Made by a program: the position numbers and the translations under genes. Positions 14,364-17,864 of a DNA stretch of 32,000 bases are shown piece by piece. The notes beneath the pieces were generated by a model. It was not told the DNA's origin. It made no database searches and saw only the letters and a program-made list of their open reading frames with translations. The stretch comes from Candidatus Helarchaeota ASGARD archaeon Hel_GB_B. GTDB taxonomy: Archaea > Asgardarchaeota > Lokiarchaeia > Helarchaeales > HEL-GB-B. The stretch covers positions 1-32,000 of the forward strand of contig SUPR01000030.1 in the NCBI GenBank assembly GCA_005191425.1, written 5' to 3'. Within the stretch, counting starts at the first letter, position 1; every line of letters starts with the position of its first letter.

Positions 14364-15071
14364 ATGACAGAAGATGAAGATAAAGAGAAAACCGAGGCAT
14401 ATAAGAAGTTTGCCGACAAATTGAAGATTGAGCAGTTAAAAGGAGAAGGAGAAAGGATTCAAGCGCTAAGAAAATTGGTACAAGAGTTTGAAAAAAATTA
14501 TGGTACGGATATTAAGTTAATGCCAGCGGAAATGCAAAATAAATATAGAGAAATGAGGAAACAAGCGGGTCTACCTGAAATTTCTGAAATAGAAGTAATT
14601 GGTCCAATGTCTGAAAAAAAAGAAAACACACCAGCAAATTTGGCTAACATTATATTAAAGTTAGGGATAGGTAGAAAGGACAAGACAGGTGGGCTTATGT
14701 TGCTCTCAGAACTAATTATGTTGTTAAGGACACAGACACCGCTGAAAAAAGTAAAAATAGGAGAAGTCAAAAGAGTATTAAAGAGATTAGAGAAAGAAGG
14801 GCTTATATCCGGCTTAAAAAGATTAAACTCAGGGGTAGAAATAGTTGAATTTTTACCGACCGGGTTTAACAAAGACCAAAACATAATATTATCATTAGCG
14901 TCATCAAATGGGGTTCTTACCTTAGAAGAAATTATGCTTAAATTAAATTGGGCGCAAGAGAGAGTTTTAAGAGTGTTGAAAACATTAGAAAAATCTAATA
15001 TTGCTAAAAGAGACCATAGTTATGCAGCCGGTCAAAAATGGTATTTTCCAGGGTTAATTAAAGACTCATAA
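14364..15071 (+). CDS. vps22: ESCRT-II Vps22/Vps36-like (EAP30/Snf8) protein
   Basis: Collinear with eukaryotic Snf8: LVQEFEKNYGTDIK..., KTGGLMLLSEL, FNKDQNIILSLA..NGVLTLEEIM.KLNWAQERV.RVL..L, terminal KWYFPGL; tandem winged helices. Confidence 0.85.
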   Translation: MTEDEDKEKTEAYKKFADKLKIEQLKGEGERIQALRKLVQEFEKNYGTDIKLMPAEMQNKYREMRKQAGLPEISEIEVIGPMSEKKENTPANLANIILKLGIGRKDKTGGLMLLSELIMLLRTQTPLKKVKIGEVKRVLKRLEKEGLISGLKRLNSGVEIVEFLPTGFNKDQNIILSLASSNGVLTLEEIMLKLNWAQERVLRVLKTLEKSNIAKRDHSYAAGQKWYFPGLIKDS

Positions 15072-16193: not shown

Positions 16194-16286
16194 GATATGA
16201 TGAATGAAATCAACTTATGATTTTGCTCCCACATATTATTTAGATAATATTTACTTTTTAATTGTGTGTCTCTAAAATACAATAAT

Positions 16287-16997
16287 ATGAACGAAAACAC
16301 TCTTTTTGATGTACGAAGCCTTTATATTTTAAAGGACGGAGTGCCAGTTTTTCATTGGCATTATATTAATGACAAAGAATTGAATATAGAAAAAGAAGAG
16401 AAAGATTCGGTTTTAATTTCTGGCTTTTTAAGTGCAATTGTAGTATTTGCAAATGAAATAGGGATCGGAGAGCCCAAGAGTTATTTGACAGATGACATCA
16501 AATTTTCCTTTTTGAATAAAAATGGTTTTCTATTTGTAATTTCTATTGAAAAGGACATCCCTGACGAACAAGCCTATGATTTTTTGAATATAGTTTCCAA
16601 GACATTTATCAAATTATATGATGTAGGTGATTTTCATAACTTACAAGCGATAAATTTCGATGAATTTAAAGAATATTTATTTGAAATAATAAAGAAATTC
16701 AATATAAAAAATATAACAAATGAAAAAATAAATGAGGATGAGATTATAAAAGAAATCCCAAATAAGAGCAATATATATAAAAATTTAATTCCAAAATGCT
16801 ATATTGATTTAGAAAGAAATAAACACTTTTCTAGTTTAAGGCGTACTTTATTTAAATTAATTGATGGGAATATTTCGATATATAATATTGCCCAGAAAAT
16901 GAACTATAACCCACAGGACATTTATTATACACTACGGTCATATGAAAAATTTGGATATATTCAGATCAAAAAAATTGATAATAATGAAGAATCCTAA
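16287..16997 (+). CDS. Longin-domain protein with a C-terminal winged-helix domain
   Basis: SLYILKDGVPVF, LISGFLSAIVVFANEIG, FSFL..NGFLFVI (Asgard longin pattern); C-terminal LFKLIDGNISIYNIAQKMNY..QDIYYTLRSYEKFGYI. The ORF track starts at 16266. Confidence 0.72.
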   Translation: MNENTLFDVRSLYILKDGVPVFHWHYINDKELNIEKEEKDSVLISGFLSAIVVFANEIGIGEPKSYLTDDIKFSFLNKNGFLFVISIEKDIPDEQAYDFLNIVSKTFIKLYDVGDFHNLQAINFDEFKEYLFEIIKKFNIKNITNEKINEDEIIKEIPNKSNIYKNLIPKCYIDLERNKHFSSLRRTLFKLIDGNISIYNIAQKMNYNPQDIYYTLRSYEKFGYIQIKKIDNNEES

Positions 16998-17139
16998 AGA
17001 AAAAGGGCATAAAAATGTAAATAAATAAGGAAAAAAAGTACGAACAAAAAACAAATTTTTTAAAAAATAAACCAAGGTTTTAAGATAAAAGATAGTTTTA
17101 GATGGTATAAAAAAGGTAAACTAGAAATCAAGGGGAGTC

Positions 17140-17334
17140 GAGAAAATATATTTATGCAGAAGCGATAAGGCTCTTCCGTGTTCGGGATGGGTAACGGGTG
17201 TTTCCCTTCACCTATGATCGTGATTAAAGTCACAACCATCCTAAGTTCCCATACACTCTCGTAGTATAGTACAGTTAGGACCGCGTGAAGGCTTAATTCG
17301 GCGTCTTATTACTTCTTTTGCATTATATTTCCTC
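17140..17334 (-). other. RNA processing stem enclosing the 5S gene, with one canonical and one relaxed BHB motif
   Basis: Leader and trailer pair as GAGGAAAUAUA/UAUAUUUUCUC, AUGC/GCAU with AAA bulges on opposite strands, AGAAG/CUUCU and AUAAG/CUUAU. Confidence 0.85.
17173..17296 (-). rRNA. rrf: 5S rRNA gene, circularly permuted (3' half 17296-17230, linker CUUUAA, 5' half 17223-17173)
   Basis: Rejoining the halves gives a 118-nt canonical archaeal 5S: UCACGAUCAUAGGUGAAGGGAAACACCCGUUACCCAUCCCGAACACGGAAG+UUAAGCCUUCACGCGGUCCUAACUGUACUAUACUACGAGAGUGUAUGGGAACUUAGGAUGGUUGUGA. Helices I, II, III and the loop E arm all pair, and the conserved CCGAAC loop C is present. Confidence 0.92.
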
Positions 17335-17864
17335 AAACAGGAAATAAAACGATTTTAAAGGTGTATAGCTTAAATTTTAAGTTATAAATTAAATTAAGAT
17401 TATAAATTACCATAAATAATGAAATTTAAAGTTTTTCTATATAAAAATGAATTATGCAAATTTCAAGTGAAAATTAAATTTTTATGATCAAATGTACATT
17501 TTTAAGACAAATAAAATAAAAAAAATAAATGGTAAAAGAAATTAATTGGAAAAATATATTAATTTTAGAAGTATTAATAAAAATAATTAATGGGATTTGG
17601 AAAACTCCATAAATAAAAATAAATTAAGATTATTCGGGGTTAAAGAATTTTTAAAAGATAGATAAAGGCTATAAATATTAGGAAGTTTCAATAGAAATTG
17701 GAAAATAATTAGATAAAATTTAAATTTCACCAAAAAATATTAATGAATAAAAAAGTAAAAAAATTTAAATAAAATAGATTATATGAAAAAAAGAATTAAT
17801 TTTTAAAAACTTATGAAATAAATACTAAAAATCAATTGGTTAAAATAATTGGAGTAAAGTAATA

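Follow-up and report, generated by a model that had tools for sequence, protein, structure and literature searches.

The fold that brings together the leader and trailer of the 5S rRNA locus in the window (the whole 32,000-nt stretch of archaeal DNA that was analysed) is probably a functional recognition site for the splicing endonuclease. It lies on a circularly permuted 5S transcript, which EndA would cut and RtcB would ligate, and the resulting 124-nt circle would be the mature 5S rRNA. Four kinds of direct observation were available for this reading, namely the sequence itself, the covariation among relatives, the fit of the junction and the enzyme genes of the genome.

The genome (3.54 Mb, 93.7% complete) was searched with Rfam at relaxed thresholds, and its sole 5S-like locus was a permuted gene on the minus strand. 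At the curated gathering thresholds no Rfam match was obtained within the window; the threshold of RF00001 is 38 bits, and the two genomic halves of the gene scored 24.0 and 19.9 bits, each below this value. The halves stood in swapped order and their normal ends were fused by a cap, which is the gene order expected of a permuted RNA gene of the Thermoproteus SRP RNA type, repaired by splicing-type circularisation. The parts of the gene were as follows:

17230 to 17296, minus strand: 3' part of the 5S, encoded first, comprising loop B, the helix II 3' strand, helices IV and V and the helix I 3' strand (scored 19.9 bits against the Rfam 5S model, below threshold; aligns to normal 5S genes).
17224 to 17229, minus strand: hexaloop CUUUAA capping helix I, at the position of both ends in normal 5S (sequence reading).
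17173 to 17223, minus strand: 5' part of the 5S, encoded second, comprising the helix I 5' strand, loop A, helices II and III and loop C (scored 24.0 bits against the Rfam 5S model, below threshold; aligns to normal 5S genes).

The 3' part (17296 to 17230) began with UUAAGCC and finished with the helix I 3' strand, and the 5' part (17223 to 17173) terminated in CACGGAAG. The helix I cap in most relatives was a 4-nt loop, mainly UUCG and also UCCG, UACG or UUAG. A TATA-like UUUAAAAU was present at 17352 to 17359 (minus strand) in an AT-rich region, about 15 nt upstream of the outermost leader–trailer helix, and a U-run, CCUUUUUUAUACC, lay at 17100 to 17113 (minus strand), about 25 nt downstream of this helix. 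These two elements may act as promoter and terminator for a short transcript that stands alone.

Two nested motifs were formed by the leader and trailer of this gene. The inner one had been proposed in the preliminary description as a relaxed bulge–helix–bulge (BHB) motif with pairing between GCCG and CGGA, and its parts were assigned as follows:

17299 to 17302, minus strand: GCCG, the central-helix strand on the leader side, which copies the helix III 5' strand as a decoy (sequence; orthologue covariation).
17296 to 17298, minus strand: leader 3-nt "bulge" AAU, located in a loop with no helix 3' of the bulge; predicted cut between 17297 and 17296 (AAU in six orthologues, AAA in one).
17175 to 17178, minus strand: trailer strand of the central helix, CGGA, of which 17176 to 17178 are the helix III 3' strand in the mature fold (sequence; Rfam alignment; orthologues).
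17172 to 17174, minus strand: trailer 3-nt bulge AGA between two helices; predicted cut between 17173 and 17172 (exactly 3 nt in seven of seven orthologues).
17303 to 17316, minus strand: leader strand of the helix common to both motifs, which flanks the inner motif on its outer side and the outer motif on its inner side (paired with 17171 to 17158 at 12 of 14 positions).
17158 to 17171, minus strand: trailer strand of the common helix (orthologue comparison).

All of the bases named for the pairing of 17302 to 17299 with 17178 to 17175 were recovered at these coordinates. The leader read G17302 C17301 C17300 G17299, then A17298 A17297 U17296 and next UAAGCC, and the trailer read C17178 G17177 G17176 A17175, then A17174 G17173 A17172 and next GCCUUAUC. 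Hence, the central helix consisted of the Watson–Crick pairs C17301–G17176, C17300–G17177 and G17299–C17178 plus G17302.A17175. Both 3-nt bulges were present as described, each on the 3' side of its strand, which is the polarity of a bulge–helix–bulge motif. The estimate of about 1 bp for the helix on the 5S side was also borne out, only U17295–A17179 being able to pair there. The helix on the other side had been under-read; it spanned 14 positions beyond the trailer bulge, with 12 pairs and two A.C mismatches, one of which was at the second position.

The class of the motif was evaluated according to these helices. A strict hBHBh' motif has a central helix of exactly 4 bp, where the window had three Watson–Crick pairs plus G.A. 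It has two opposite 3-nt bulges 3' of the central strands, and both were found, with 3 nt in the seven orthologues. It also has flanking helices of at least 2 bp on each side; the outer helix had 12 pairs over 14 positions, and the 5S side had only U17295–A17179, so the inner motif is no strict member of the class. The relaxed definition (hBH, or bulge–helix–loop) involves a 4-bp central helix, at least one bulge of 3 nt between helices and a symmetric cut site in a loop (PMC4731332; PMC6379350). According to the orthologue comparison, the central helix, the 3-nt bulge between helices and the symmetrically placed cut site in the loop were all present. The designation of the motif as relaxed was appropriate, because the 5S-side helix measured 0–1 bp in all seven orthologues. 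An alternative central helix, UAAG (17295 to 17292) with CUUA (17169 to 17166), was also considered; it fitted the window and L006, was missing in L007, L008, L009 and L010, and would leave two extra nucleotides at the junction, and it was rejected.

EndA cuts between the second and third bulge nucleotides. Cuts predicted by this rule, between 17297 and 17296 and between 17173 and 17172, gave a 124-nt piece whose joined ends, GGAAG-UUAAG, matched the Rfam 5S consensus CggAAguUAAG. The products of all seven orthologues were spliced in silico, re-opened at the helix I cap and compared with two conventional 5S genes of a sister family (58–65 bits, Rfam); all seven aligned over their full length, and no gap occurred at the junction. 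The exact restoration of the 5S junction, as claimed in the preliminary description, was thus confirmed at the level of the predicted product. Any alternative pair of cut positions would add nucleotides to the 5S product or remove them from it. The rule of cutting after the second bulge nucleotide is indirectly supported here by its agreement with the junction fit.

The possibility of a chance resemblance was evaluated with relatives of the window. Support from the window sequence alone was weak, with three Watson–Crick pairs and one G.A, and a loose scan returned about 12 motif-like matches per shuffled sequence. The layout was common to seven orthologues from three families of the order (the window, L006, L007, L097, L008, L009 and L010). 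The MAFFT alignment of the orthologue flanks (A1) was free of gaps, and the counts covered the 4 central and 14 outer pairs in the seven orthologues. Paired cells amounted to 107 of 126 (84.9%), versus 33–41% in six shifted registers, and the observed pairing was reached by none of 2000 column shuffles. Double compensatory changes occurred in 15 of the 18 helix pairs, including all 14 pairs of the shared helix. Moreover, a register shift at the trailer bulge destroyed the pairing in the seven orthologues. The first central pair was G.A in the window, U–A in L006 and L133, G.U in L007 and L097 and G–C in L008, L009 and L010; a C-to-U change in L009 retained a G.U pair. The central helix was paired at all four positions in nine of the ten relatives examined in the family and order, and L134 carried the G.A of the window. 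In other words, the window sequence by itself did not rise above chance, and the decisive answer came from the relatives.

Thermodynamic folding was evaluated with ViennaRNA. The pairing probability in the window was 0.01 for the inner central helix and about 0 for native helix III, and the mature circle was not folded into the native 5S structure by single-sequence thermodynamics. The method was therefore regarded as uninformative rather than contrary, because native helix III and the mature fold were missed as well. The motif lay within the minimum-energy structure in four of six orthologues when leader and trailer were cofolded and in three of seven when the full precursor was folded.

The EndA subunit type, which the preliminary description had left to be read from the genome, appeared from the gene sequences to be (alpha-beta)2. 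The catalytic subunit (192 aa) was closest to the alpha subunit of the Aeropyrum pernix heterotetramer (E 2.5e-42); its alignment was gap-free through the Crenarchaea-specific loop of the A. pernix EndA, and the Lys44 equivalent was retained. A second paralogue (198 aa) had Ala at the position of the catalytic His of M. jannaschii and was taken as the structural subunit because this His is missing. By homology, the genome thus probably encodes a two-subunit (alpha-beta)2 endonuclease with the loop that gives broad specificity. Relaxed motifs are cut efficiently only by (alpha-beta)2 and epsilon2 enzymes (PMC6379350). Cleavage at the leader site, which has no flanking helix on the 5S side, would depend on this homology-derived specificity. 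The RtcB ligase was also encoded (568 bits).

The proposed mechanism can be outlined from these results; its cleavage, ligation and circularity, as well as the order of its steps, are predicted from sequence. The long leader–trailer helix would stack on the 4-bp central helix, which is composed of the decoy GCCG and the helix III 3' strand CGGA. The trailer cut site would then be held in a true 3-nt bulge between helices and the leader cut site in the matching 3 nt of an open loop, and EndA would cleave after the second nucleotide on both sides. RtcB would ligate 17173 to 17296, giving GGAAG-UUAAG. The joined product would be a 124-nt covalent circle, because helix I is closed by a loop, and this circle would represent the mature 5S rRNA. 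Once the leader is removed, 17176 to 17178 would pair as helix III with C17197 C17196 G17195, their partners in the Rfam alignment.

The competition between the leader and helix III for the same CGG, which had been pointed out in the preliminary description, was therefore present. The two pairings are mutually exclusive because both use 17176 to 17178, and precursor and product would fold differently there because the central helix uses the helix III 3' strand. The preliminary description had further interpreted this exclusion as a refolding switch. The exclusion itself stood, but it follows from the position of the motif, and a regulatory role was not supported. The forced motif and forced helix III differed in energy by only 1–3 kcal/mol.

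The outer motif is located 21 nt further out on each side and comprised the following parts:

17324 to 17336, minus strand: 5' strand of the outermost helix, 13 pairs with 17150 to 17138 (read, cofolded and scanned, with at least 12 pairs in the scan).
17320 to 17323, minus strand: leader strand of the central 4-bp helix, AUGC, pairing with GCAU at 17157 to 17154.
17317 to 17319, minus strand: leader 3-nt bulge AAA; predicted cut between 17318 and 17317 (the A-run allows a register slip of one nucleotide).
17154 to 17157, minus strand: trailer strand of the central helix, GCAU (scan; relatives).
17151 to 17153, minus strand: trailer 3-nt bulge AAA; predicted cut between 17152 and 17151 (sequence; scan).
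17138 to 17150, minus strand: 3' strand of the outermost helix (sequence; cofold; scan).

The outer motif (17336 to 17138) was a strict BHB motif, with the central helix AUGC/GCAU, the bulges AAA and AAA and flanks of at least 12 and 6 consecutive pairs. Two further species of the family (L133 and L134) were recovered via the neighbouring gene. The outer central helix in the relatives was GUAC/GUAC (L006), UUAC/GUAA (L133) and GUGU/GCAC (L134), and the 3-nt bulges were retained; the L134 motif was ambiguous, its outermost helix being weak. The canonical outer motif was thus confined to the family of the window, where it was clear in three species and ambiguous in the fourth. It was not found by scanning in five orthologues of two sister families, whose stems were irregular, and the weak A/U-rich candidates in L010 occurred at close to the chance rate. 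The outer motif is under selection in the family of the window, because its central helix covaries while the 3-nt bulges are kept. Three strain-level relatives (L136, L137 and L138), whose neighbouring protein was 98% identical, differed from the window by A17230 to G, at the final position of the helix I 3' strand, and by one changed position in the outermost helix (17139 in the window); both motifs were otherwise identical.

The preliminary description had suggested that the relaxed inner motif may need prior cleavage of the outer BHB and that splicing proceeds in two nested steps. As a general rule the first claim failed, because five orthologues had an equally relaxed inner motif and no canonical outer motif. 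Nested two-step processing is plausible in the family of the window, given that the outer central helix covaries. The outer motif could also release a 166-nt circle in this family, within which the inner motif would behave as a hairpin intron. Either cutting order would give the same 124-nt product and a 42-nt by-product.

A stricter version of this scheme would require the two steps in sequence: the relaxed inner motif would be cut efficiently only after outer excision and circularisation had made the shared helix a closed hairpin. This version is doubtful. The selection on the outer motif speaks for it, and two of four family members, versus none of the five orthologues lacking the canonical outer motif, had an inner central helix weakened to 3 bp plus G.A, which gives a weak hint of outer-first dependence; these counts are small and the species are related. 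Three loci from other Asgard families, described below, also appear to need two rounds of splicing. Against a strict order, the primary transcript already contains the whole inner motif, and relatives manage with an equally relaxed inner motif and no outer one. A fuller ordered scheme is similarly tentative: the outer motif would yield the 166-nt circle, the inner motif would be removed as a hairpin intron and the closed 124-nt 5S would enter the ribosome, while the leader decoy would delay the folding of helix III and loop C to the final step, as a checkpoint that stops 5S-binding proteins from being bound by unspliced RNA.

The three loci concerned are L119 (G051, family f16) and L118 and L125 (both family f8). 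The best leader–trailer motif of each would give a circle of 151–153 nt with a hairpin insert of about 30 nt adjoining the junction, and the leader strand occurred there a second time (as CGUG AGA in L119). Once the first ligation is made, this repeat, the stem of the hairpin and the original trailer strand (CACG) would build a new motif, and cutting there would give the exact 5S junction. Obligatory two-round splicing looks like the route indicated by these sequences.

The fate of the circle was considered as well. The circle could be an intermediate, and opening it within or close to the helix I cap would produce a linear 5S rRNA of the conventional kind. Precedents exist, since the transcripts of permuted tRNA genes are circularised and then opened at their normal ends (according to work cited in PMC10085705), and several archaea convert circular 16S and 23S intermediates back to the linear form (PMC12918454). 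This outcome is nevertheless unlikely for the 5S rRNA: no processing signal was visible at the cap, no handle of the RNase P or RNase Z type was present for 5S, and most caps in the phylum sample were 4-nt loops (mainly UUCG; UCCG, UACG), which suit a stable closed hairpin more than a cleavage site. Alternatively, the inner motif could be cut and its ends left unjoined, giving a linear permuted 5S with ends at the border of helix III and loop B that is held together by helices II and III, in the manner of the permuted mitochondrial 5S rRNAs. With helix I closed by a loop, one break elsewhere in the molecule would be topologically tolerable, linear 5S rRNAs of permuted type are known from organelles (PMC4267664), and ligation is a predicted step. 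However, the EndA products (2',3'-cyclic phosphate and 5'-OH) are natural substrates of the encoded RtcB, a break point that varies by lineage is easier to tolerate if ligation erases the break, and a 2-bp closing helix in the Rfam alignment (A17201–U17296 and C17200–G17173) spans the break, so this outcome is quite improbable. The stable helix I cap, the lineage-variable break and the suitability of the EndA ends for RtcB together favour ligation into a lasting circle. Finally, sole use of the outer motif, with the functional 5S being the 166-nt circle with a hairpin of 42 nt where helix III meets loop B and the inner "motif" being only the base of this hairpin, would agree with the canonical form and the covariation of the outer motif in the family, but it is highly improbable because the five orthologues of two sister families without a canonical outer motif retain the inner one, its trailer bulge measuring exactly 3 nt, because the leader decoy covaries with the trailer nucleotide (unneeded under outer-only use) and because the inner cuts restore the exact 5S length.

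The distribution of the inner motif was examined beyond the order. The preliminary description had treated it as the second of the two motifs; this ranking did not hold, since the inner motif was conserved in all three families of the order and had homologues in most Asgard families searched. An Rfam 5S search of 40 relatives found conventional 5S genes in one family of the class only. A large sister family had the same permuted design, and the central helix was paired at four of four positions in all 20 loci parsed. The central helix was CUGG/CCAG or CCGG/CCGG in loci with the break GGAA-G and CYGG/CCGG in loci with the break inside loop C. The leader strand is complementary to the trailer (CUGG/CCAG) and not identical to it; therefore, it is probably kept for pairing and is no leftover of a duplication. 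In the phylum sample, a conventional above-threshold 5S was present in only 51 of 151 genomes, concentrated in the families f5, f10, f13, f15, f19, f26 and f27, and most other families had paired sub-threshold half matches to 5S. Permuted 5S loci were also found in 11 further Asgard families, in which a blind scan for the best helix and central helix gave the exact 8-nt GAAC-UAAG spacing in 10 of 15 loci. Several of these loci are strict motifs, as their 5S-side helix measures 3 bp.

In Odin-type and some other lineages (L117, L123, L129 and L131), the homologous motif was strict, with a 3-bp 5S-side helix of GUU with GAC or GAU and the break GGA-AG. The relaxed form in the order of the window therefore looks derived. 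The break points differed by lineage and were GGAAG-U (window), GGAA-G, GGA-AG or inside loop C. Judged from these comparisons, the inner motif is the local, relaxed version of a putative phylum-wide ancestral signal with a break point shifted by 1–2 nt. A clade of family f4 (L015, L016, L098, L099, L102 and others) had the 5S broken in loop C (CCCGGUC-CCAUCC), and its decoy mimicked the other helix III strand. In many f4 leaders, the outermost helix was separated from a 3-bp helix beside the motif by a small hairpin with a UUCG cap. The permuted 5S was about 150 nt instead of about 120 nt in L110 and L130 (insertion in loop C) and in L015, L099, L102, L104 and L105 (insertion elsewhere), with hairpin-like insertions of about 30 nt, which may be mini-introns or expansion segments in the 5S body. 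A scan of genome contigs with a 17-nt pattern returned bacterial contigs only, presumably with ordinary 5S genes, and a metagenome scan returned only the species of L006.

Among known systems, the closest is the SRP RNA of Thermoproteus tenax and T. uzoniensis, which is encoded by a permuted gene and becomes a functional circle after a BHB-type cut (Plagens et al., 2015, PMC4731332). In both cases a structural RNA other than tRNA is encoded with its 3' part first, the leader and trailer form a BHB motif, the cut is assigned to a heterotetrameric endonuclease of relaxed specificity, and RtcB is proposed to close the circle. The present case differs in that the RNA is 5S rRNA and its processing is predicted from sequence, that two nested motifs occur in the family of the window and that the arrangement spans much of a phylum, whereas the SRP RNA case involves few species. 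Moreover, a refold would be needed for the 5S rRNA, unlike the SRP RNA, because the central helix borrows a strand of mature helix III. The relaxed bulge–helix–loop substrates (PMC6379350) also have a central helix of 4 bp and combine a single true 3-nt bulge with a second cut site that lies in a loop, and they require endonucleases of the (alpha-beta)2 or epsilon2 type that carry a specificity loop. In the 5S locus, by contrast, the substrate is an rRNA, and the piece between the cuts would be retained while the leader and trailer would be discarded.

The outer motif resembles the processing stems of archaeal 16S and 23S rRNAs, in which a motif in the leader–trailer helices leads to excision and circularisation by the tRNA-splicing machinery (PMC12918454; PMC7758197). 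Those genes are collinear, however, and their ligation junction lies outside the conserved rRNA core. The 5S rRNA was stated not to use the circularisation route in the archaeal species studied (PMC12918454). Permuted tRNA genes (Cyanidioschyzon merolae, Soma et al., 2007; some Crenarchaeota), as far as they are cited in PMC10085705 and PMC6379350, likewise have the 3' half first and a terminal motif that leads to a circular intermediate. According to the same citations, tRNA circles are re-opened by RNase P and RNase Z, whereas the 5S ends are fused by a short loop that shows no processing signal. In permuted organellar 5S rRNAs, helix I is likewise closed and the termini lie at other positions (Valach et al., 2014, PMC4267664), but they are mitochondrial and linear, with no splicing motif or ligation proposed (PMC4267664). 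A 2023 survey of natural RNA permutations listed 5S for organelles only (PMC10085705). Circular 5S molecules in Sulfolobus and Halobacterium came from normal genes and were read as degradation products (PMC12558985), and the authors of the closed Heimdallarchaeum genomes could predict no 5S gene (PMC8813620). No description of permuted archaeal 5S genes was found in the literature searched, the coverage of which was incomplete.

The inner motif would be the mechanistic key to the missing Asgard 5S, with tRNA-splicing enzymes able to restore a back-to-front gene to the nucleotide. The leader decoy for one helix III strand is a design that covaries across most Asgard families sampled. If this reading is true, a covalently circular 5S rRNA is predicted for ribosomes of the archaea that are most closely related to eukaryotes, and the motif defines exact cut sites and a junction sequence that can be tested in RNA data. 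The nested motifs would furthermore be a natural case for studies of endonuclease specificity. In practical terms, permuted 5S genes are missed by rRNA finders and by genome-quality standards that require 5S.

The genomic context of the locus was also recorded. The organism is an Asgard archaeon: the genome encoded a eukaryote-type actin (446 bits), and the adjoining DUF1512 protein was 98% identical to one labelled Candidatus Helarchaeota, a label with which a weak MCR-alpha-like match agrees. The 5S locus was flanked by an EAP30/Vps36-family (ESCRT-II-like) gene (Pfam, 43.9 bits) and by a near-threshold Longin-domain match (24.5 bits versus a cut-off of 26.2), at 14364 to 15071 and 16266 to 16997 of the window, respectively. 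Both EAP30/Vps36 and Longin are eukaryote-signature proteins.
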